Made by a program: the position numbers and the translations under genes. Positions 543 to 30,128 of a DNA stretch of 32,000 nucleotides are shown piece after piece. The notes below the pieces were generated by a model that ran no database searches, was not told where the DNA came from, and worked only from the letters and a program-made list of their open reading frames with translations. Source of the stretch: Candidatus Lokiarchaeum ossiferum (GTDB lineage: Archaea; Asgardarchaeota; Lokiarchaeia; Sigyniarchaeales; Promethearchaeaceae); NCBI GenBank assembly GCA_025839675.1, contig CP104013.1:1110001-1142000 (forward strand). Direction: 5' to 3'. The first letter of the stretch is position 1. Every line of letters begins with the position of its first letter.

Positions 543-687
543 ACTTGATTCTCAGGTATGTACTGAAAATATGATTAATTAAAACTCAGTATTTAATTTG
601 AATTTCATTCAGAAAAAATAGTACTTGTATCGACATTCTATTTAAGAAAAAACCGTGATTTTTTGGAATTAGCCTTTTTTTTTTATT

Positions 688-1146
688 TCACTTTATGGAA
701 TGATTAGTGGTGGTTTTCAATATTTTGCGTATAATAGCCTTTTCTTCAGGAGTATGGACTATCTTTACATAGCCAAATATTAATACACCAATTACTAGAA
801 TCCCAATTGGTTCTAAATAGGTTAGTTCAAATCTAAAACACAAAAATAATAGAATTGTTTCAAGAGTGCCAAAGGAATACATTATTATTAGACTAATATT
901 ATATTTACGGAATATAACTCGGATGAATTCACTATCATATGACTCTAAACTAGATTTTCTTAACACTTGTTGTTCTTTGATAATCGGGACGGATAATAAT
1001 ACAGTGGCAATTATCGTAGGTAATGAAATCATGAGTGCAGATATAAGATTACGTTGACTTCCAATAATTATCAATATGACAATGTATATGATGAGACTTG
1101 ATAGAAGCAAAAATACTTTCAGTTTTATGCTTTTAATTGTGATCAC
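688..1146 (-). CDS. Hypothetical integral membrane protein
   Basis: 152-aa ORF with a GTG start and about four hydrophobic helices. I recognise no motif. Confidence 0.45.
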   Translation of the reverse strand: MITIKSIKLKVFLLLSSLIIYIVILIIIGSQRNLISALMISLPTIIATVLLSVPIIKEQQVLRKSSLESYDSEFIRVIFRKYNISLIIMYSFGTLETILLFLCFRFELTYLEPIGILVIGVLIFGYVKIVHTPEEKAIIRKILKTTTNHSIK

Positions 1147-5006: not shown

Positions 5007-5990
5007 ATGAATGGTATCCTTAGTGCATTTTTAATGGTCATTACCTTTGCGCTCTCATTTATCCTTATTCGGAAAGTTGAACAGACTTATTCAACAGTTT
5101 TTATCAATTTCATACGAGCGATTATTGGACTTAGTTGTTTTGCACTCTACACCCTTTTTATCGGCCAAATTCATCATATATTCGATCTAAACTTTCTAAT
5201 ATGGGGAATTTTGGGTGCAAGCATCATTTTTGGAGTCGTGATCGGAGATACTGCTTTCTTTAAATGTCAAAAATTCATTGGACCAACTAATGCGGCCACT
5301 TTTGCCATCACATCCCCGATTTTTACAATGATCCTTGCGATTCTAATTCTTGGAGACTCATTTCAATGGATTTTACTTCTCTCATCCATTATCACTGGAG
5401 CGGGAGTATATTTATTGGTCCATTTACAACAAAATTCTGATGAAGAGCAAGAAGCAAAGACAACAGATAATCTCTCTGAGACTGAAATGAACAAACTTCG
5501 CTTGATTTCAGGAAGTCTCTTTGGTTTACTTGCATCTCTTGCATGGTCCTTTGCAAATATTTATAGTGAAATGGGACTTGGTTTGAGTGAAAATGAGCTG
5601 CAAATTGATTCCAACATTTATGTTGTCACTAATATCATCCGTTATCTTGTAGCCAGCACATGTATGGGAAGCTGGTGGATGATAAATCGATCCAAAAAAA
5701 AAAAAAATAGTGTTGATTTCCATAATAATGAAAGTCCAGATTCTTCTCGAAAATTGATGAGTATATTAATCCTATCTGCAATTTTGGGTACGTTTTTAGG
5801 AGAAATATTCTTTGGTATCACCATTGTGAAAATGGGTTCTACATTTATTGCTATAATGGGATCTTCATTACCTGTGTTTACCATTCCATTGAATTATATT
5901 ATTAATAAAGAAAAATTAAATATCAAAAGTCTTCCAGGAATAGTGATTACTCTTGGGGGAGTTTTTATATTGATATTTGCCTCAAGCTAG
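5007..5990 (+). CDS. EamA/DMT-superfamily transporter
   Basis: 327 aa arranged as two blocks of about 5 TM helices, separated by a polar loop (QQNSDEEQEAKTTDN). This is the usual duplicated EamA topology. Confidence 0.7.
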   Translation: MNGILSAFLMVITFALSFILIRKVEQTYSTVFINFIRAIIGLSCFALYTLFIGQIHHIFDLNFLIWGILGASIIFGVVIGDTAFFKCQKFIGPTNAATFAITSPIFTMILAILILGDSFQWILLLSSIITGAGVYLLVHLQQNSDEEQEAKTTDNLSETEMNKLRLISGSLFGLLASLAWSFANIYSEMGLGLSENELQIDSNIYVVTNIIRYLVASTCMGSWWMINRSKKKKNSVDFHNNESPDSSRKLMSILILSAILGTFLGEIFFGITIVKMGSTFIAIMGSSLPVFTIPLNYIINKEKLNIKSLPGIVITLGGVFILIFASS

Positions 5991-6061
5991 TTGATGAAAA
6001 AAAAACTAGGAGTATTTCTTTCTAGATTGAGTGAATGGTATTAAAAGCGAAAAATATAAAA

Positions 6062-6291
6062 AACAAATAAACAACGTGGGCACGCTCTTTGAATATAATC
6101 CAATGGTTTCATTATACTCTACGTTTGATTCATATTTTTTCCAACGAAGCAAATAACTCTAATAAATCCGCATTTTTTGGAATATCGTGCATACTGTCAC
6201 TATAATATGCATACTGAATAGTCCCTTGTTTGGTTACAATGATCATATCCGGTATCTGTCCCAGCCGCCAAATTTTGATCTCTTGTTTTCA
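6062..6291 (-). repeat. Direct repeat copy A (~230 bp), homologous to 8225-8456
   Basis: Aligns by eye to the 3' UTR plus the last ~52 codons of the redoxin gene at 8295-8774, with scattered substitutions and two small indels. Boundaries are approximate. Confidence 0.8.
6130..6291 (-). pseudogene. 3' fragment of a PRX_like2 redoxin paralog (C-terminal ~52 codons only)
   Basis: The minus strand reads KQEIKIWRLGQIPDMIIVTKQGTIQYAYYSDSMHDIPKNADLLELFASLEKI*. The intact gene has NQEIKIWRLGRMPGMLIVDKQGIIQYAYYSDSMHDIPKNADVLELLASLEKK*. An in-frame TGA sits immediately upstream, and there is no N-terminal half and no start codon. Confidence 0.7.
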
Positions 6292-6430: not shown

Positions 6431-8068
6431 ATGACTAAAAAAAAAAATGCAATTTTATTAATTTTATCCGTTATTTTGCTGGAATTGGGCATGCTTAACT
6501 TAATTCCTACAATTCAATGCACTCCGATAAGTGAGGATGCACAAAATTATATCTACTCAACATATTTCGGAGGATCGGGAAAAGATGTAATCACAGATGT
6601 CGCTTTTGACTCCCAAGGAAATATAATTATCGCGGGAGGAACATTTTCTAGGGATTTAAACACTTCAAATGGATATCAATCCGAATATGGGGGAGGATCA
6701 TCAAGTGATATCCATATTAATGGAGGAGATGGATTTGTATTTAAAATGAACCCTCAAGGAAAACGTATATGGGGTACGTATCTTGGGGGAAATAGTTTAG
6801 ATGTCTGCGATCAACTTGTCATCGACTCTAACGATGAAATCTTTGTCACTGGAGAAACACAATCTTCAAACTTCCCCACTACAGAAGATGCAATTCAACC
6901 TACCTACGGAGGGGGCACGTCCGATGTGTTTATTACAAAATTTATGCCAAATGGTTCTGTTCAATATTCGTCCTTTATCGGAGGTTCTGGTGTTGATTCA
7001 GGCGGAAAATGTAAGATAGATGGATCAGATCAACTTTATATTTCCTTCTTTAGCGCTTCTTCAAACCTAAATGTTACTTCCAACGCCCACCAAACTTCCT
7101 TTGGGGGAGATTATGATGTGTATATTAGTAAATTTGAAAACAATTTAACCAAAATGTTATATGGAAGTTATTTTGGAGGAAGTGATATGGAATTAGTTAG
7201 CAATATTGAAGTAGATGAGGATGATTCACTAATTATCATAGGTAATATCATGGGAGGTAACATGCCTACTCTAAATGCGTTCAACGAAGTTTTTAATGGA
7301 GGTGATAGGGATATATTTATTTCAAAATTCTCAAATAACTATTCTCTCGAATTTTCGACATATTTGGGAGGAGATCAATTTGAAGATCCATTTGGTTCGA
7401 CCATAGGTTCTCACAGTGATATTATAATTAGTGGTCGTACAATGTCTACCGATTATCCCACCGCCAATGCTCTTCAAAAGAATTTTGGTGGTGAAGTTGA
7501 CGGAATCATTTCTGTTCTTTCTTCAGATGGCCAAGAATTAAAATATTCATCTCATTTTGGAGGAATAGGTTGGGATACAATTCATGAAGTAGTGTATGCT
7601 GATAATGGGAAAATATATGGATGTGGTGTTGCAAACTCTAATTTTCCGTTAAAAAATGCCTTTCAAGAATCCATTGATTTAACTACAGGCAATTTGGTGT
7701 TGCTTCAATTATCTAATGAACATGAATTTGAATTTGGTACCTATTTTGGTGATACAAGTGACCAAACTACTCCCTATGGGATCGATTATCATTCTGGTTA
7801 CATTGTAGTCGTAGGAAGAACAAGATCTTCTTCATTCTTTAGGAGCGATGATGCTGATCAATTAACAATGAGTGATACTGAGGATGGTTTTATTTGTCGA
7901 ATTGCCATTGAGGATTATATGGAGGGTAAGGATGTTTCTGGAAAACCAACAAATTTAATTTCTCAAACAATTCCAGGTTATAGCCTAATTTCTCTTGGAA
8001 TTTGTTTAGCTCTGGCCCCAATGTTATTATCGTTGCATAAAAATAGGAAAAGGAGTAAAATCTTCTAA
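6431..8068 (+). CDS. Secreted SBBP-type beta-propeller repeat protein with a C-terminal IPGYS/TM/basic anchor
   Basis: AGGTGA RBS 6 nt upstream. N-terminal signal peptide. About 7 reiterations of YSTYFGGSGxD...SxNFPTT...GGxxDxFIxKF (SBBP repeat pattern). The C-terminus is TIPGYSLISLGICLALAPMLLSLHKNRKRSKIF. Confidence 0.8.
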   Translation: MTKKKNAILLILSVILLELGMLNLIPTIQCTPISEDAQNYIYSTYFGGSGKDVITDVAFDSQGNIIIAGGTFSRDLNTSNGYQSEYGGGSSSDIHINGGDGFVFKMNPQGKRIWGTYLGGNSLDVCDQLVIDSNDEIFVTGETQSSNFPTTEDAIQPTYGGGTSDVFITKFMPNGSVQYSSFIGGSGVDSGGKCKIDGSDQLYISFFSASSNLNVTSNAHQTSFGGDYDVYISKFENNLTKMLYGSYFGGSDMELVSNIEVDEDDSLIIIGNIMGGNMPTLNAFNEVFNGGDRDIFISKFSNNYSLEFSTYLGGDQFEDPFGSTIGSHSDIIISGRTMSTDYPTANALQKNFGGEVDGIISVLSSDGQELKYSSHFGGIGWDTIHEVVYADNGKIYGCGVANSNFPLKNAFQESIDLTTGNLVLLQLSNEHEFEFGTYFGDTSDQTTPYGIDYHSGYIVVVGRTRSSSFFRSDDADQLTMSDTEDGFICRIAIEDYMEGKDVSGKPTNLISQTIPGYSLISLGICLALAPMLLSLHKNRKRSKIF

Positions 8069-8220
8069 TAACTGTGGTATCCAAGCATTTTTTTTCTTTC
8101 TTATTTCTGACCAAATTGATGGAGAAAAACGGGTAGATCTGTCCCAAATCAAGGAACTTACACAATAGGCTTTGGGATATAAACACATCAATCACTCGAA
8201 GGAATTAAAAAAAATAAATA

Positions 8221-8251
8221 AAATAAAAAAACAAACAGCGTGGGCACGCTC
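8221..8251 (-). terminator. Hairpin plus U-tract downstream of the redoxin gene
   Basis: The minus-strand RNA reads AGCGUGCCCACGCU (5-6 bp GC-rich stem) followed by GUUUGUUUUUUUAUUU. Oligo-U tracts act as archaeal terminators. Confidence 0.45.
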
Positions 8252-8456
8252 TTTGAATATAATCCAATGGTTTACATTATATTCTACGTTTGATTCATTT
8301 TTTTTCCAACGAAGCCAATAACTCTAATACATCCGCATTTTTTGGAATATCGTGCATACTGTCGCTATAATATGCATATTGAATAATCCCTTGTTTGTCT
8401 ACAATGAGCATTCCCGGCATCCGTCCCAACCGCCAAATTTTAATTTCCTGATTTAA
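8225..8456 (-). repeat. Direct repeat copy B (the part of the intact redoxin locus homologous to 6062-6291)
   Basis: See copy A. Same orientation, about 2.16 kb apart, bracketing the SBBP gene. Confidence 0.8.
8255..8284 (-). promoter_or_regulatory. Candidate SECIS-like 3' UTR hairpin
   Basis: The RNA is GAAUAUAAU-GUAAA-CC-AUU-GG-AUUAUAUUC: a 9-bp lower stem, a 5'-side purine bulge, a 2-bp G:C helix and a triloop. It starts 10 nt after the stop codon. Copy A (6091-6119) keeps the fold, and its bulge reads GAAA. Confidence 0.35.
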
Positions 8457-8774
8457 TTTTTTGGCGACTTGGTTCGTTTCATCATAGAGAATAGGAAATT
8501 TTCCCTTCGCATATTTTTCTTCCATTTTTTGGGCATTTGTTAATTTATCGACTAAGATTGGAACTATTTCTGTGTTCAAGGCACGAAATTTCTCGTAAGC
8601 CATCGCTAACCGCCCGATGTGTGCCCGACAGAAAGGTCAATGAATATCGCGTAGAAGAACAATGACCAGATTGGATGTTGATCGCATATTCACCGAAGAA
8701 AAGGTTGCGCTACGAGAAGTGGGTAGCTCAAAATCCTCCAAGGGAGTTCCGACTATACCAAATTTATCCTTCAT
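8295..8774 (-). CDS. PRX_like2 / AhpC-TSA family thiol-disulfide oxidoreductase, candidate selenoprotein (UxxC; Sec codon = complement of 8637-8639)
   Basis: Reading through one in-frame TGA gives a 159-aa protein: MKDKFGIVGTPLEDFELPTSRSATFSSVNMRSTSNLVIVLLRDIH-U-PFCRAHIGRLAMAYEKFRALNTEIVPILVD.... The TGA sits exactly where this family has the first Cys of W-C-P-F-C. The ORF track reports only the 102-aa portion after the TGA. Confidence 0.65.
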
Positions 8775-8847
8775 AAGTTCTTCAAATGTATATGAGGGAA
8801 CAAAGTTTAAAATGCTTCTCGTTTCAAATGAAAGAATTCAAAAATAA

Positions 8848-9095: not shown

Positions 9096-10124
9096 TTATG
9101 AAGAATACGGCTCCGCCCGTTTATATTGACGGGGAAGAACACAATCGACATTCAGCACTTCTGCAGTTTTCAAAACCCAATAGGGATTTCGCAATAGTTC
9201 CCGCCCCAACCATACAAAATCCGCCTCCTTTTTCTCTAAGATGGTTTCTATTTCGGTCGGAGTTGTAATTAACCCCCCCGTTATAACGGGTATATCTACT
9301 TGCTTCCGAATGATCGCCGCAAAGGGGACTTGATAACCGGCCACAAAAGCAATTTCGGGAACAGCTGCTGTCACACCTCCACTACTCACATCCAATAAAT
9401 TCACCTGGGTTTGAGGATCTGCATTTAAAGACTTGATAATTTCCACATGATCCTCCGCATGAAGCCCCTGGGGTTCATATTCATCTCCAGAAATACGAAG
9501 AGCTACGGGTCCCACATAAACCTCCTTGATTGCTTTGATAATGGCAGTCAAAAAGGAAAGATTATACCGCGGGTTACATCCATAGGTATCGCTTCTTTTA
9601 TTCACCAACGGAGACAAAAATTGATTGATCAAATATCCATGGGCTCCATGAATCTCAATAAGATCAAAGCCTGCCTTTTGCGCCCTCTCAGCCGCTTTTT
9701 TGAATGCTTGGGTCACGTCTTCAATTTGTGCGCGGGTCATTTCAAATGGTTCCGGATATTTCTCATTAAAAGCGATACTTGAGGATGAGAACCCTTTGCC
9801 GGTCCCAGTTTTTCGTCCAGCATGCCCTAATTGAATGGCAATCTTAGCTCCAAAATGATGCACAATATCAACTATCGATTTTAAGCCTTCAATATGGCTA
9901 TCAGACCAAATTCCCAAATCCGCATTGCTAATCCGCCCTTCTGGTACCACAGCCGTCGCTTCCAAAATAATAAGTCCCACACCTCCCTGGGCTCGGGTTC
10001 CATAATGCACCACGTGAAATGGTTTTACCATGCCCGATTCATCCGAACTATACATACACATTGGGGGCATAACCACCCGATTTTTCACCGCTATCGTTCC
10101 AATTTTTTTTTCTGTAAAGATCAT
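9096..10124 (-). CDS. namA: NADPH dehydrogenase / Old Yellow Enzyme family (YqjM/NamA type)
   Basis: MIFTEKKIGTIAVKNRVVMPPMCMYSS...HVVHYGTRAQGGVGLIILEATAV...GIWSD.HIEGLK...IQLGHAGRK matches the YqjM pattern closely. I use the internal ATG at 10124, because the track's 43-aa extension overlaps the TetR gene. Confidence 0.85.
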   Translation of the reverse strand: MIFTEKKIGTIAVKNRVVMPPMCMYSSDESGMVKPFHVVHYGTRAQGGVGLIILEATAVVPEGRISNADLGIWSDSHIEGLKSIVDIVHHFGAKIAIQLGHAGRKTGTGKGFSSSSIAFNEKYPEPFEMTRAQIEDVTQAFKKAAERAQKAGFDLIEIHGAHGYLINQFLSPLVNKRSDTYGCNPRYNLSFLTAIIKAIKEVYVGPVALRISGDEYEPQGLHAEDHVEIIKSLNADPQTQVNLLDVSSGGVTAAVPEIAFVAGYQVPFAAIIRKQVDIPVITGGLITTPTEIETILEKKEADFVWLGRELLRNPYWVLKTAEVLNVDCVLPRQYKRAEPYSS

Positions 10125-10233
10125 TTCTTTCCCTCTATTGATATATATTACGATTCTTGCGAAATATGAATTAATCGATTTTTTCCAAAATCTGAGATAC
10201 CTAGCAATCGAAACTTTGATACGATTCTTCCAC

Positions 10234-10851
10234 TTATCCAATAAACTTTTCATAGGATTCCATCAGAAGGAACATCATCTTTTGAATGTTTCCATTCAAT
10301 TCTACTTTAAATTTATCAAATGTCATTCCGATGGTTCTTCGAGTAATGAATTTACACAATTCTCCATGGAGATAGCTATGTAGAATATAAGAAATTTCAT
10401 ATGCTGCATTTCTTGGGACTTTTTCTTGCATACTATTGTAAACTAATTCTGCAAATCGTTTTTTTAATTCTTCCGAAAATTGAGTTACTCGTAGCGGGAT
10501 CGGCTCTTCTATTTTTTCTAACCAGATAAATCTAAAAAGACCTTCATGTTGATGGGCAAAATCGATTTGGGCATCAATAAAGGCAGGAAAATGTTCAAAA
10601 TTTCGAGCCCGTGTTCCGACTTGCTTTTGGGTGAAAAGGATAATATTTTCCATGGTGTGTATCATAGCCGCATATAAAAAACTGTTAAAATCTCCAAAAA
10701 AATTGTAAATGTTTGTGTGCGCACATCCTGCCTTTCTAGCGATCGATCTCAGACTGATATTGTTCAAACCTTTTTTTTCATCAATCATTTGACAACAAAT
10801 TTCTATGAGTTTTTGTTTTAGATTTCTTGATTGATCTGCTGGTTTTTCCAT
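10234..10851 (-). CDS. TetR/AcrR-family transcriptional regulator
   Basis: N-terminal HTH: ISLRSIARKAGCAHTNIYNFFGDFNSFL. The 205-aa size and helical C-terminal domain are typical of the family. Confidence 0.85.
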   Translation of the reverse strand: MEKPADQSRNLKQKLIEICCQMIDEKKGLNNISLRSIARKAGCAHTNIYNFFGDFNSFLYAAMIHTMENIILFTQKQVGTRARNFEHFPAFIDAQIDFAHQHEGLFRFIWLEKIEEPIPLRVTQFSEELKKRFAELVYNSMQEKVPRNAAYEISYILHSYLHGELCKFITRRTIGMTFDKFKVELNGNIQKMMFLLMESYEKFIG

Positions 10852-20598: not shown

Positions 20599-20890
20599 TT
20601 TTTGAAAACCTCTTATTAACGGTAACGTGAATAGGCGCCCAATGAAAGTATTTCCTGAGGGCTCTTTGATATTCTATTCTATTTAGATGCTTCTGATTAT
20701 AAAGAATGTTGAACGAGAATGAAATTTTATTCACATAAATTAGCACCATTTTTATGATTCAAACGATTTTATGCAATATTTGGAATCCATGGTTCTAAAA
20801 AAGATGACCAAGAAGGAAAAACCTTTATCCACTCTTTAAATGGTGAGTTAAGTTTATAATGGGTAGTATTATTTTATGGAGGTTTTAAAA

Positions 20891-24392: not shown

Positions 24393-27300
24393 CTATTTTG
24401 AATTGTGATCATTTGAGTTCGAGTTAGAACTTTTTTTTGTTTTTGTATTCTTAACCGTTTGTTTTGCAGTCTTTACTTGTGTTTTTCTTGAAGTTTTCTT
24501 AGAAATTTTCTTTTTAAATGCAGTATCTTCTTTGGTAATTATCCGCTTTTGAGATTTTTTTTCAGTCATCGTTTTGTTTTGCAATTCGGTCTTATTTTCT
24601 ATCTTGAGGTTTTCAGATTCAGAGGGAATTTTATTCTCAACGAGATTTGTTGTGTTTGCAAGATCCTTTAGATTTTGTTTTGCAGCACTAAGTTCTTCTT
24701 TAAAGATCGAATCACTTTTAGAACTATTATTATCTCCTTTCGATTTTTTAGGTATTATCTGTATTTCGTTGTTAGCTTCCATTGTATTTATACCAATTTT
24801 CTCTTCTGGATTGGAGAAATCAGCGACTTTATTGGATCGAGGAGGTCGAATAATTTGAGTTTTATCTTCATTTTTTTCAATTTTAGAATCACCAGGCATA
24901 TCTTTCTGTTTACTCTCCTTAAAAATAGATTTCTTTTTGGTTACTGAAGATTCAGGTCCAATTCCATTTATTTTAGATGGTTTTTCCAAATCTTTGGGAG
25001 AATAAAACTTCTTTTGATGAGATTTAGAACTTTGTTTCAATTTTCCTAAACTGAATCTGCTCTTTTTTTCCTGAGATTTTGGCACTTCTTGCCTTCGAGA
25101 GACTTCATCAAGAATTTGACGATCGCTATCGGTCATCAAGATCACTTTATTTTCATCTATAGCATTTTTGGAAATATCTTCAGGTGTTATGTTGTCATAT
25201 AATCCGAAGTTCCGTTGTCTCCAAATGAGAAATACAATAGTAGATATTGAGCCAGCTAGAAGTACAGCTAAAATACTAATAATCCACCAAAGTGCTGCAT
25301 TCCCTCGATTTTCTGTTCTATCTCCAGTACCAATATCTGCATTTGGATCTTCAACCACAATTAAAACACTATCAGAAACGCTAACTCCGGAAGCAGAAAC
25401 GAGAATGCACTCAAATAAATAGGTACCTACAGTTAAATTATTCACGTTGATAGCAATTGGTTCGCCACTTTGCCATTCGCCTTCATAGATGATAACCCCA
25501 TTTTGTTTAATAATTACATTTCCAGGATTAGGAGAATTTCCATACCAAGTAATGGTTGAAGCAGTCTGATTCACATCTAAAACCACATCTTGTGGTTGAG
25601 AAATGGTTGGAGCAGGGTCTAAAACGATTACTACAACGGAGTCATATACCATCATTCCACTCGTCGAATTAAGGACGCACTCATAAAGATACGAACCAGC
25701 GATTAATCCATCAAGATCGATTGAAATGTCAAGCGAAGAAGTCCAATTATCGAGGAATATTACTTCTCCATCTTTCAAGATTTTAACTTTATCAGGTATT
25801 AAAGAGTTTCCCACCCAGGTTATGTTTTGACCAATCTGATTTATAAGAAAAGATTTATCTGGAGGATGGCTTATCTCCATATTTGGTTCTAAGACTGTAA
25901 GAATTACCGCATCATAAACAACGTTTCCAGTGGTTGTATTTAGATAACATTCATAAAGATATACACCTGGCATTAAACCATCAATGGGGAGAATGATATT
26001 TTCTGAAGAATTCCAAGGATTCTCAAAAATCAGAATATTGTCTTTAAAAATTTTAATATGATCCGGTATTGGGGACGTCCCTACCCAAGTGATATTATTA
26101 TTTAAACTCAAAACAATATAGGAACGATCCTCAGGATGTGAAATTGTGGGAGGAGGTTCTAATACTGTGATAGTGATGGAGTCATATGCAATTTCATTTG
26201 AAGTGGAATTAACATAGAGTTCAAAAGTGTATATTCCTGGATCTAAGTCAGCAATCTCGATAATAAAGGGTTCATCACTATTCCATGATGTATTAGACTC
26301 AATTAATAAACCATTCCGATAAATTAACGCAGTATCTTCTAGAGGTGTATTTACCGACCATATAATTGGATTAACAAACTCTGTAACATTGAACACCACA
26401 TCTTCTGTGGCTGTTATTATAGGATGTGTGCGAATTACTGTAACCAGAACACTATCACTTGAAAAATCACCTTGCGTTGAATTTACAAAGCACGTATACT
26501 GATAAATTCCGACTTGTAATGAATCAATATTAATTAGTATCGGAATATTGTTCTCCCATAACCCTGTTGCAATTATACTTCCATTCCGAGTTATATTGTA
26601 ATAGTTGGGATCAGTAGTATTAGCATTCCAACTGATGCTAAAACCCGTGTACCCAAAATAATAGGATACATCGCCCGTGGATGAAATATTTGGTTTTGGT
26701 TGTAAGTTATAACCATCCCACCAAATAGGAAAACGATCTTCCCCATTGGGCAATATATAATATGACATATTACCAATATAATCATCATCCCAATCATTTC
26801 CAGCAAAGTCATCCCAGTAATTTCCCATTGTACCATTATCCCATAAATTTAGAAAGCCTTCATCAACTGCATGCAATCCATTAGATGAAAAATTATTGAA
26901 ATAAATTTCACTAGATATCGCATTTGCATATAATCCAATTCCAATCCCTGTAGTATTCCAAATATAATTAGAAACAATTAAACTGTCTTGACAATCAGTG
27001 ATTATATAAATTCCAAATGCTGTATTGTTAGAAATGCTACAATTGATAATCTCATTAGAATCACAATTGCTTTCCACTTTAATCCCATATTCTGAGTTAA
27101 ATGAAATTGAATTATTATAAATTTCATTGGAATCACAGAGATCATGAAGGAAAATTCCATGTTGGTTGTTGTATGAAATATTATTATAAAGAATTTGACA
27201 ATAATCGCTATCATCATCAATCCAAATTCCATGTAAGTTGTTATAGGATATATTATTCCATTTAATGAAGGATGAATCGCTTCTTTCATTAATATAAATC

Positions 27301-30128
27301 CCATAGCCATAATCCGCCGCACCATTGAGTCCATTATGTGAAATCGTATTATAATATATGGAGTTATTTATTGAGTCAGTCTCAATATAAATTCCATGAT
27401 ACTGAGTATTGCTTACATTATTGTAAAGAATTTGATTAAAACTACTTTCATCATCATAAAACATACCATAATTTCCTGACACGTTGTTATCTGAAATTTC
27501 ATTGTATTGACATTCATCAAGAAAATAAATTCCATACCGATTATTTCTCATAAATGAATTACTAATAATATAATTGAAATTACAATAATCTTGGAAATAT
27601 ATCCCATCCCACTTATTATCCGATATGACGTTTTTTTTCAAAATGTTTCCATTACAATGGGATAAAAGTGAAATACCTTGTGAATAAGAACCAATACTTT
27701 GCGAAAAAATATTATTTTCAATTAAATTATTATTACAATAATTATCAAGGTAAATTCCATCGCTATAGCTGTTCCTGGCTCTTGAAATATTGTTTCCTTG
27801 AAAATTATTGAATGAACAATATTGATTGAGGTGCACAAGATGATTTTTACTGTAAGTTATATTGCACAGAGTGAAATTATTATTGTTTGAATAATAGAGA
27901 TAAACTCCATTCAAAATTGCTCCAGTAAAATTGCAGTTAGTTATTCCAAGGTAATTTGATTTGTAAAGAAATATTCCATATTGACGATTGGTAATATCAA
28001 GATCTTCAATAATAGAATTATTTGTATTAATCAAATATAATTGACCTCCATTTGAAAAATCCTCTGGTAATAATCCATCTTCATCAACATAATAATAAAT
28101 ATATTTATTATCAACTGAATTGTTTAAATTAAAGAAATGGGTGTAATGGTTTTTGTTTGTTAGAGTTCCTTCTATGCCGAAACCAGTTTTAGTAAAATTA
28201 TTATCCTCAATAAAAAAAAATTCACATGATGAAAGATATAAACCATAATCATTGTTGTCAAAAATTTTGTTATAAGATATATTAACTTCTAAGCAACCTG
28301 TATTAAACTTAACTCCATAATATGCATTTCCACCATTTTTAGAAACCAAATTAGAATGAATTGATACATTTTTAGAAGTAGATAATTCGATTCCATGACG
28401 AGTATTTTCTGAAATGTTATTGTTGAAGATTGTTAAATTTTCTGCCAAATTATAGGATATAGCAGCTCCTGAGATTCCATATAAATTTTTATTAATTTGA
28501 TTTCTCGAGATTTCACAGTTATCAAAATATGATAAATGTATTCCTTGGCCTCCGTTGTTACTGATCTCATTTCTTGAAATATTGATATTTTGACAATAAG
28601 AAGTAAAGGAAGCTCCATAGTTCGTATTATAATTAATGCTGTTACCAACCACAGTTGTATTTATGCAATATCGATCAACATGCAATCCATCATTTTGACA
28701 ATATTTCAGATCATTTAATTCAACCGTAATATTTTCACAATAGGTATCTAAATAAATACCATAACCAGGTGACCCATAGCTATTATAATTATATCCTTGG
28801 ATACCATCGATATTATTACTCGAGATATTGCTATTTATCGTCTTATAAAAGTAAATCCCATCATAGTATGAGTCAGATATAATATTGTCGATAACTGATA
28901 TATTTTTACATTCAATCGACACAACACCGTAATCAGTATATGAAAAATCTTGATTGGAAATTATCGAATCATTACATGTTATTAAATATATTTGAGCGGC
29001 ATTTGTATAATTTAGTTCAGTTAAATTTGCGAGATTTTTAAAATAAAATATTTCCTTTCCATCCACAAAATTATCTTCGATGGTGTGGGTGTAGTATTCA
29101 ATATCAAAAGATGAACCTCTTGCCCCATATATCCCCAAACCTGATTCAGTTAAAGTATTACTTTCAATTATCAAAAAACTCGAACTTGATATTCTGATCC
29201 CAAAAATTGTACTTTCACTAATTGAATTGAAAGATATATTATTGTAATTTGAATTACTCCTGATAGATATTCCAGAATATAAGGAAGTTGAGATAGAATT
29301 ATATGTAATATTATTTTCCAAACAATTAGAAGATAGTATTATTCCATTATTATTTGCATTCGAAATGGTGTTATCTGTTATATTATTGAAATTACTACTT
29401 ATTAGATGAATTCCATCTCTTTTTGGAGTATCCATCGTGTTTTGAGTAATGTTTGATAATTCACAACCAGTTAGATGGAGTGCATCATAAACATGTTTGA
29501 ATATATTATCGAAAATGGTAATATTTTTAAAATTTGATGTTGAATAAATCCCATAATAGTTTTGTGTACTTTTACCTGTAATATTATTACTACTAATCGT
29601 AATATTTTCACATTTATCATAGAAATTTATTGCTCGGTAGTTGTCATTGAATTTGTTATTAGTTAAGATCCCATTAGTAACATTTGAAAAGAAAATACCA
29701 CCATCTCTGTAATAATATGTATATTCATATCCGATAATCTCACAATTCTGAATTATGAAATGTGATTTAGAATCATGAATATAGAGCCCTTTATAATCAT
29801 TTAATGCAAGATCTTCTAAAGTAACATTCTCAATTATATATGGATCGCCTTGAGTACCAGAACCGGAACACCAATCCTGAGATACAGCCCAAGACCAGTT
29901 TTTAGCACCAATACCCGTAGCATCTCCATCAATTTCCAAATTGGTAAACTCCCAGTTTATAGAAGATTTAGGTTGAATTTGATTTTTAAATTGTTCAAAT
30001 CCATGATCAGAACTATCGAAACGAGATTTGAAAGAATTTGCACAAAATCCAAGGATAATAACTATAGTTAGGTAGGATAAAATAAAACAATAGTGCTTTT
30101 TTAGTGATAATTTAGTAAATAATTTCAT
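24393..30128 (-). CDS. Giant (1911 aa) type-I membrane surface protein: signal, about 1050 aa of right-handed parallel beta-helix (PbH1) repeats, 5 Ig-like modules, a TM helix and a ~275-aa Lys/Ser-rich cytoplasmic tail
   Basis: PbH1-like periodicity of the type NNITxNxISxNxxxGIxL runs throughout aa ~95-1130. Five ~90-aa repeats span aa 1146-1595. The TM helix ALWWIISILAVLLAGSISTIVFLIW is at nt 25221-25295. The low-complexity K/S/E tail is at nt 24396-25220. Confidence 0.9.
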   Translation of the reverse strand: MKLFTKLSLKKHYCFILSYLTIVIILGFCANSFKSRFDSSDHGFEQFKNQIQPKSSINWEFTNLEIDGDATGIGAKNWSWAVSQDWCSGSGTQGDPYIIENVTLEDLALNDYKGLYIHDSKSHFIIQNCEIIGYEYTYYYRDGGIFFSNVTNGILTNNKFNDNYRAINFYDKCENITISSNNITGKSTQNYYGIYSTSNFKNITIFDNIFKHVYDALHLTGCELSNITQNTMDTPKRDGIHLISSNFNNITDNTISNANNNGIILSSNCLENNITYNSISTSLYSGISIRSNSNYNNISFNSISESTIFGIRISSSSFLIIESNTLTESGLGIYGARGSSFDIEYYTHTIEDNFVDGKEIFYFKNLANLTELNYTNAAQIYLITCNDSIISNQDFSYTDYGVVSIECKNISVIDNIISDSYYDGIYFYKTINSNISSNNIDGIQGYNYNSYGSPGYGIYLDTYCENITVELNDLKYCQNDGLHVDRYCINTTVVGNSINYNTNYGASFTSYCQNINISRNEISNNGGQGIHLSYFDNCEISRNQINKNLYGISGAAISYNLAENLTIFNNNISENTRHGIELSTSKNVSIHSNLVSKNGGNAYYGVKFNTGCLEVNISYNKIFDNNDYGLYLSSCEFFFIEDNNFTKTGFGIEGTLTNKNHYTHFFNLNNSVDNKYIYYYVDEDGLLPEDFSNGGQLYLINTNNSIIEDLDITNRQYGIFLYKSNYLGITNCNFTGAILNGVYLYYSNNNNFTLCNITYSKNHLVHLNQYCSFNNFQGNNISRARNSYSDGIYLDNYCNNNLIENNIFSQSIGSYSQGISLLSHCNGNILKKNVISDNKWDGIYFQDYCNFNYIISNSFMRNNRYGIYFLDECQYNEISDNNVSGNYGMFYDDESSFNQILYNNVSNTQYHGIYIETDSINNSIYYNTISHNGLNGAADYGYGIYINERSDSSFIKWNNISYNNLHGIWIDDDSDYCQILYNNISYNNQHGIFLHDLCDSNEIYNNSISFNSEYGIKVESNCDSNEIINCSISNNTAFGIYIITDCQDSLIVSNYIWNTTGIGIGLYANAISSEIYFNNFSSNGLHAVDEGFLNLWDNGTMGNYWDDFAGNDWDDDYIGNMSYYILPNGEDRFPIWWDGYNLQPKPNISSTGDVSYYFGYTGFSISWNANTTDPNYYNITRNGSIIATGLWENNIPILINIDSLQVGIYQYTCFVNSTQGDFSSDSVLVTVIRTHPIITATEDVVFNVTEFVNPIIWSVNTPLEDTALIYRNGLLIESNTSWNSDEPFIIEIADLDPGIYTFELYVNSTSNEIAYDSITITVLEPPPTISHPEDRSYIVLSLNNNITWVGTSPIPDHIKIFKDNILIFENPWNSSENIILPIDGLMPGVYLYECYLNTTTGNVVYDAVILTVLEPNMEISHPPDKSFLINQIGQNITWVGNSLIPDKVKILKDGEVIFLDNWTSSLDISIDLDGLIAGSYLYECVLNSTSGMMVYDSVVVIVLDPAPTISQPQDVVLDVNQTASTITWYGNSPNPGNVIIKQNGVIIYEGEWQSGEPIAINVNNLTVGTYLFECILVSASGVSVSDSVLIVVEDPNADIGTGDRTENRGNAALWWIISILAVLLAGSISTIVFLIWRQRNFGLYDNITPEDISKNAIDENKVILMTDSDRQILDEVSRRQEVPKSQEKKSRFSLGKLKQSSKSHQKKFYSPKDLEKPSKINGIGPESSVTKKKSIFKESKQKDMPGDSKIEKNEDKTQIIRPPRSNKVADFSNPEEKIGINTMEANNEIQIIPKKSKGDNNSSKSDSIFKEELSAAKQNLKDLANTTNLVENKIPSESENLKIENKTELQNKTMTEKKSQKRIITKEDTAFKKKISKKTSRKTQVKTAKQTVKNTKTKKSSNSNSNDHNSK
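25344..26693 (-). repeat. Five tandem ~270-nt (90-aa) Ig-like coding repeats inside the giant gene
   Basis: Each module has the shared pattern P.IS.P.D......Q..NITW.G.S..P....I..NG..I....W.S...I.I...L..G.Y.YEC.L.S..G....DSV...V.(E/D)P. Example: PPTISHPEDRSYIVLSLNNNITWVGTSPIPDHIKIF.... Confidence 0.8.

Follow-up and report, generated by a model that had tools for sequence, protein, structure and literature searches.

A conserved in-frame TGA, probably a selenocysteine codon, at the redox site of a PrxL gene of Candidatus Lokiarchaeum ossiferum, and a three-helix RNA element downstream from the stop codon

The DNA analysed here is a stretch of 32,000 nucleotides from Candidatus Lokiarchaeum ossiferum (contig CP104013.1, positions 1,110,001 to 1,142,000), referred to below as the window, and positions are given in its own numbering. 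Its minus strand carries a gene with an in-frame TGA at the position of the first redox-active cysteine. The product of this gene is very probably a small peroxiredoxin-like thiol/selenol oxidoreductase with a thioredoxin fold, belonging to the MKDKF...HUP[F/Y]C subfamily of the PrxL family, with the internal UGA decoded as selenocysteine (Sec) under the control of a signal in the 3'-UTR; this assessment covers the explanation as a whole, Sec decoding and 3'-UTR signal included. The PrxL family and its selenocysteine have already been published for Lokiarchaeota and other Asgard archaea: the finding in the window is correct but known, and the window sequence is a new allele. The features of the coding region are the following.

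8295..8774, minus strand: PrxL selenoprotein CDS (predicted), complete, 159 residues including Sec46; ATG at 8774-8772, TGA stop at 8297-8295
8637..8639, minus strand: UGA codon 46, probably read as selenocysteine; TGA in the same column in orthologues, Cys in Cys-type homologues
8628..8639, minus strand: redox box U-P-F-C (Sec46, Pro47, Phe48, Cys49), as predicted from the translated sequence

An earlier note, made from the sequence alone, had proposed that the minus-strand frame continues through a single TGA (8637-8639) to an ATG at 8774, and the translation proved to be exactly as claimed. Read from 8774 to 8295, the frame consists of 45 codons counted from the ATG start, the only internal TGA, 113 further codons and a terminal TGA. 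The translation around the internal codon is ...NLVIVLLRDIH-[TGA]-PFCRAHIGRLAMAYEKF..., that is, D-I-H-[TGA]-P-F-C-R. The list of open reading frames splits the gene into two parts, 8637..8774 (45 aa) and 8295..8603 (102 aa). When Cys was put at the TGA, the Pfam family AhpC-TSA (PF00578) matched residues 8-133 over profile positions 1-123 of 124 (E=5.6e-19), and the Redoxin family (PF08534) also matched (E=5.3e-13). The single AhpC-TSA match across residues 8-133 indicates that one domain runs through the TGA. The MKDKF... N-terminus is kept in the orthologues.

The window has a G+C content of 33% and encodes, among others, a peptidase M28, an acyltransferase, a glycerol-3-phosphate dehydrogenase, an EamA transporter, a beta-propeller protein, a histidine kinase and an NAD synthase. 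Its gene order is common to L081, the relative whose PrxL protein is 92% identical. A gene for an Old-Yellow-Enzyme flavin oxidoreductase is located directly upstream from the PrxL gene and is also its neighbour in L081 and L082. The listed start of this ORF (9096-10253, minus strand) lies 44 codons ahead of the Pfam domain, and the ORF shares 20 bases with an upstream ORF of 205 aa (10234-10851, minus strand); its true start is probably an internal Met (MIFTEKK...). At 24393-30128 (minus strand) the window encodes a protein of 1911 aa in which numerous NosD/right-handed beta-helix repeats accompany a PKD-like domain; a counterpart of 1545 aa is found near PrxL in L081 and L082.

The conservation of the internal TGA was analysed by scanning one genome per GTDB species, which yielded 80 related loci. 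TGA occupied the same alignment column in 77 of the 80, at protein identities of 34-75%, and was found as well in ten further metagenomic loci (L081-L091). A metagenome scan with one protein as query yielded three loci only. The TGA-bearing Asgard loci belong to about ten lineages (Promethearchaeota, Thor-, Hermod-, Hod-, Odin-, Borr-, Jord-, Frey- and Atabeyarchaeia), and the bacterial ones to seven Anaerolineae MAGs. The orthologue of Promethearchaeum syntrophicum MK-D1 (L002) carries the TGA and is 75% identical to the window protein. The best matches of the window protein were MK-D1 and other Promethearchaeota (= Lokiarchaeota), in agreement with the lineage that had been inferred from the letters of the sequence; the nearest relative, L081, is an unannotated metagenome contig. 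In the orthologues no frame disruption was detected besides the TGA, which answers a check suggested in the earlier note.

Of the three loci among the 80 without TGA, L080 is a Cys form from a bacterium, L064 a degenerate copy from Helarchaeota that reads D-L-F-C, and L040 a partial tblastn match with a normal 3' element. The claim that the TGA takes the place of the N-terminal redox Cys of a CxxC motif was borne out by the homologues that align Cys in this column: P0043 and P0053 from Asgard archaea and P0114-P0119 from bacteria, whose CPFC stands opposite the [TGA]PFC of the window, and L080. In the Helarchaeota Hel_GB_A copy (L064, 885-1358), D-L-F-C replaces U/C-x-x-C, so that the first redox residue is lost, and there is no 3' element; this copy may be inactive or repurposed. 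The contig of L060 (DATKTW010000112.1), labelled Candidatus Nanopelagicaceae bacterium, carries an Asgard-type PrxL with TGA and an Asgard-type 3' element, and is probably wrongly binned.

Codon changes relative to L081 were counted on both sides of the TGA. Upstream (45 codons) 12 changes were synonymous and 6 non-synonymous; downstream the numbers were 23 and 7. The ratios were similar in five more relatives. The excess of synonymous changes on both sides indicates that the two halves are constrained as coding sequence in one frame. The conservation of the TGA, this two-sided constraint and the continued use of TGA as a stop (see below) make a pseudogene, a genome-wide reassignment of the codon or a pair of separate genes very unlikely.

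The first redox residue is followed in the window protein by Cys49, which is the sole cysteine of the protein, none being found outside the redox box. Exactly one Cys was likewise found in 64 of 64 UxxC orthologues. Thirteen of the 77 Sec-type orthologues (L056, L059, L060, L062, L063, L065-L072; approximately codons 45-49) have U-P-Y-A/S/T instead, with zero cysteines. Judged by their translations, these form a '1-Sec' variant, with the predicted Sec as the only redox-active residue. These 13 sequences are present in the data set of a 2024 survey (PMC11227280), and no discussion of the U-P-Y-A/S/T variant was found in the accessible part of the survey text.

The nearest solved sequences are BCP/PrxQ-type peroxiredoxins (2ywn/4g2e) and thioredoxin-like thiol-disulfide isomerases (2cvb), with E=6e-5 and 1e-4. 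They share the fold, although the similarity is weak (about 25 bits) and these proteins contain no Sec. In the alignment to the PDB sequences, Cys49 falls on the peroxidatic Cys of 2ywn, a TxxC peroxiredoxin, and Sec46 lies opposite the first Cys in the CPY motif of 2cvb. True peroxiredoxins have TxxC, whereas the window protein has UxxC. A C/U-x-x-C/U box replacing T-x-x-C in a thioredoxin fold of the AhpC/TSA type is also found in the SelL-related redox protein (NCBIfam NF040769), which was the best NCBIfam match (E=4.3e-15) at 55.8 bits and did not reach the curated cut-off of 120 bits. A score so far under the cut-off places the protein as a relative of SelL outside the NF040769 subfamily. 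SelL proper has UxxU.

Immediately downstream from the stop codon, the transcript can be folded into three helices, which we regard as the likely SECIS of the PrxL gene, a function assigned from its position, conservation and association with the TGA.

8230..8294, minus strand: three-helix 3'-UTR element, likely SECIS, starting one base after the stop codon (MFE fold; boundaries of P1 approximate)
8294-8288 / 8236-8230, minus strand: helix P1, AUCAAAC/GUUUGUU
8284-8276 / 8263-8255, minus strand: helix P2, 9 bp, GAAUAUAAU/AUUAUAUUC, starting 11 nt after the stop codon
8275-8264, minus strand: P2 loop, 12 nt, GUAAACCAUUGG, with A at three of the first five bases and G as the last base
8250-8246 / 8241-8237, minus strand: helix P3, AGCGU/ACGCU
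8245-8242, minus strand: P3 loop, GCCC
8207..8229, minus strand: T-rich tract UUUUUAUUUUAUUUAUUUUUUUU, directly after the 3' element

The T-rich tract is probably an archaeal oligo-T transcription terminator, and we take it as a putative one. A counterpart of the element was present behind the stop codon of each Sec-type Asgard orthologue that was examined. The three helices were assigned manually and the structure was checked by counting pairs; RNAalifold on a MAFFT alignment recovered helix P3 only. Over 67 Asgard orthologues, 92.9% of the cells were paired, versus 35-57% when the partners were slid, and double changes occurred in 18 of the 22 pairs. The observed values were reached by none of 500 shuffles. 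The MAFFT alignment of the elements from the clade of the window was structurally inconsistent for the four most divergent members, and individual MFE folds were used there. Within this clade the sequence of P1 varies with pairing kept (CAAAC/GUUUG, CUCCC/GGGAG, GAUC/GAUC, UCAAC/GUUGA). In P3 the AGCGU/ACGCU of the window corresponds to AGUGU/ACACU in L081, a compensatory change from C-G to U-A.

A covariance model (R1) was built from the 67 Asgard orthologues, the window and its closest relatives being left out. Its best match in the window was 8303..8209 on the minus strand (26.7 bits, rough E ~0.003). Run with filters off, the model landed on the element after the stop codon in seven of ten relatives of the clade (L081, L086, L089, L001, L085, L002 and L087), with modest scores of 19-23 bits. 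A few unrelated AT-rich sites scored 17-23 bits; since the ranges are similar, the argument rests on the coincidence of position. No match after the stop codon was obtained for the Cys-type Asgard loci L092 and L093, the degenerate L064 and the bacterial Cys-type L080, for which the best score was at most 13.4 bits. The element thus accompanies the TGA and is gone where the TGA is gone, which is the behaviour expected of a SECIS.

The other matches of the model in the window (594-689 and 20688-20779, 28982-29064, plus strand; 2736-2826 and 6047-6137, minus strand) had 17-23 bits and E values of 0.03-0.6, are AT-rich and look like chance matches; no ORF ends upstream from the one at 594-689. 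A match at 5792-5904 (minus strand) of L002, antisense within a 338-aa ORF, was likewise dismissed as an AT-rich chance match.

Across the Asgard lineages (L003-L072), the P3 loop, which falls within the roughly 95 bases that follow the stop codon, is nearly invariant as UUAGCCA, with the U, G, C and A columns showing no variation. No other part of the element is as well conserved, although helix P1 (GAUUUGG/CCAAAUC) comes close; this near-fixation of loop and helix suggests sequence-specific recognition. The clade of the window differs from the other lineages in having GCCC, not UAGCCA, in the P3 loop and a different P1.

A different arrangement was found in the bacterial orthologues. The Anaerolineae (Chloroflexota) loci L073-L079 share the active-site TGA, and about 20 nt after it their coding sequence contains a conserved hairpin, CUCGCGC-AGUU-GCGCGAG, that resembles a bacterial SECIS. 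No bacterial-type SECIS was found after the UGA of the window, where the fold of 8645..8560 (minus strand) was no better than that of shuffled sequence (z=-0.02). A hairpin behind the UGA in the bacteria and none there in the window fits a domain-specific placement of the SECIS.

The element of the window was compared with the published models. The lokiSECIS has been described as AUGA, a 9-bp stem, an 11-nt loop that is A-rich first and has G last, the returning stem and GA, located near the stop codon (PMC4989117). In the 2024 survey, as far as its accessible part goes, the AUGA often overlaps the UGA stop, and loop variants such as G[U/G]AAA occur (PMC11227280). The window element is similar in lying directly 3' of the stop codon, in having an AUGA that overlaps the UGA stop, and in the P2 hairpin of 9 bp, with a loop of 11-12 nt that is A-rich on its 5' side and ends in G. 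The start of this loop, GUAAA, fits the G[U/G]AAA variant reported for other Asgard genes in that same part of the survey.

The differences concern the base of the stem and the overall architecture. The stem in the window is preceded by CGUA and not by AUGA, the sole AUGA being the one that overlaps the stop codon, 10 nt upstream; it is followed by AAAG (AA, not GA), which has no AUGA partner, and no partner for a quartet lies in register. Moreover, the hairpin forms a three-way junction together with two more helices that also covary, and the P3 loop is conserved. In most Asgard lineages the P2 loop has the form nGAAAA...AUGAn, with AUGA inside the loop and opposite a 5' GA, a feature absent in the clade of the window and MK-D1. 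To judge from these sequences, such a loop could place tandem G·A pairs above the stem, in an arrangement similar to a K-loop.

Searches of the window and all loci with the strict lokiSECIS pattern gave scattered chance matches, none of them after a PrxL stop codon. The loose eSECIS-like model of 2024 matched the 230-nt 3' region only weakly, with 2 mismatches and lacking AUGA; these matches were rejected, as they lie about 155 nt downstream, beyond the T-tract, and are not conserved in L081. Rfam produced no SECIS or other relevant match, either at the gathering threshold over the whole window or in a permissive scan of 8000-8800. The Rfam result was to be expected, since standard SECIS tools fail on Loki elements according to the authors of the lokiSECIS model as well (PMC4989117). 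The Loki GC14_75 PrxL genes on which that model was defined (motifs GAWUYYU and GSWUIHC) belong to a PrxL subfamily different from MKDKF...HUP[F/Y]C, and the difference between the elements may therefore be specific to the subfamily.

As a tentative reading, which we hold to be possible though doubtful, the three-helix element could be a working SECIS of this PrxL subfamily with an architecture outside the published lokiSECIS and eSECIS-like models: a hairpin without the AUGA/GA quartet at its base, in which AUGA...GA is apical in most Asgard lineages and absent in the clade of MK-D1 and the window. The 2024 survey, accessible in part, may already describe it.

The absence of the canonical AUGA...GA core from the 3' element would also be compatible with decoding of the UGA as a standard amino acid (Cys, Trp or Gly), through a reassigned code or near-cognate suppression and with no involvement of selenium. 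The same can be said of the gene content of the 32-kb window, which encodes none of the Sec machinery (tRNA-Sec, EFSec, PSTK, SepSecS, SPS) and in which ARAGORN detected no tRNA genes; complete Sec machinery has, however, been reported in related genomes that have the gene (PMC11291895). The statement of the earlier note that TGA is otherwise used as a stop, by this gene included, was found to be accurate: among the 21 main ORFs of the window 12 end in TAA, 5 in TGA and 4 in TAG. The codon terminates the PrxL gene and four other ORFs, and ORFs as long as 1911 aa are intact under table 11, which excludes a genome-wide reassignment. Furthermore, Sec forms are known for the family, the codon falls on its catalytic Cys/Sec site, and a gene-specific 3' structure that tracks the TGA is typical of Sec recoding and not of suppression. 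We consider insertion of a standard amino acid very improbable.

A second possibility is a gene in decay, in which a Cys (TGC/TGT) or Trp (TGG) codon has mutated to TGA. One base change would be enough, standard callers annotate a fragment only, and the proteins in the databases seem to carry W at this column. The protein search yielded 123 relatives, which fall into long products of about 157 aa and stubs of 88-113 aa. At the Sec column most of the long entries show W, but the DNA has TGA there: the W is false and stems from the use of genetic code 4 for gene calling on short contigs. All the stubs have an in-frame TGA upstream, in the same column. The prediction that gene callers would mishandle this gene was thus borne out in dozens of entries, as stubs or as code-4 translations with W. 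The TGA itself is kept in 77/80 loci, in Asgard lineages as well as in bacteria. The frame is otherwise undisrupted, synonymous changes exceed non-synonymous ones upstream as they do downstream, and the conserved 3' RNA goes with the TGA and is missing in Asgard relatives without it. The conservation of the TGA effectively refutes a pseudogene, which we rate as highly improbable.

Many of the entries among P0001-P0067 show Trp at the Sec column, and some of them read beyond the true TGA stop. Examples of code-4 loci with TGA in the DNA are L083 (295-777), L084 (204-677) and L088 (151-687).

Finally, two separate products, a 45-aa peptide ending at the TGA and an independent 102-aa ORF (8603..8295), seem a negligible prospect: the 102-aa ORF does begin with ATG and many databases list such a product, but it would be devoid of the redox box and of the opening beta-alpha unit of the thioredoxin fold, and the Pfam domain requires residues 8-133. 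Its internal Met shows no conservation as a start site, as the truncated calls begin at varying positions and give products of 88-113 aa, and conservation of the N-terminal part is in the same frame.

We return to the reading of codon 46 as selenocysteine, for which the sequence comparisons above argue. Decoding of the UGA would create a Sec46-x-x-Cys49 redox centre, whose two residues would cycle between the selenol/thiol and the selenenylsulfide forms. The Sec would be inserted co-translationally, with the three-helix RNA of the 3'-UTR as the recoding signal, as in archaea and eukaryotes, and this RNA would presumably recruit the archaeal Sec elongation factor. Our search found no report of Sec at the protein level for the MKDKF...HUP[F/Y]C subfamily in any organism.

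The gene agrees with what has been described for this family. Prx-like selenoproteins were reported in Lokiarchaeota in 2016 (Mariotti et al., PMC4989117), as the earlier note had stated of Sec use in this lineage. In the Loki PrxL proteins, cysteine is confined to the redox box (PMC4989117). According to the accessible part of the 2024 survey (ISME J), PrxL occurs in 43.2% of the Sec-using Asgard genomes, and its supplement lists the MK-D1 orthologue as a selenoprotein under the name 'Lokiarchaeia_GCA_008000775_U_2' (PMC11227280); this sequence is identical to the L002 translation. The complete Atabey- and Freyarchaeia genomes from which L017, L034 and L044 derive are reported to encode the complete Sec machinery together with Prx-like selenoproteins (PMC11291895). 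The window gene matches the Asgard PrxL selenoproteins in fold, in the U-x-x-C box with Sec first, in the lack of outside Cys, in lineage and in the 3'-UTR signal after the stop codon.

For annotation, these results mean that the gene should be described as one selenoprotein of 159 residues, not as a 102-aa 'redoxin domain protein' and not as a pseudogene. Dozens of public copies are truncated or mis-translated. Biologically, what was already established about Sec in Asgard archaea is not extended, apart from the possible architecture of the 3' element: the missing AUGA...GA core may be the one new point, with the reservation that the 2024 survey was accessible in part. The conserved 3' RNA is the part of interest to specialists, as it co-occurs strictly with the TGA yet has no canonical core, and is also found in the cultured MK-D1. 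If its architecture is confirmed as that of a working SECIS, Asgard Sec insertion would tolerate or use a signal other than a kink-turn, which would bear on the proposed transition from the archaeal to the eukaryotic SECIS.
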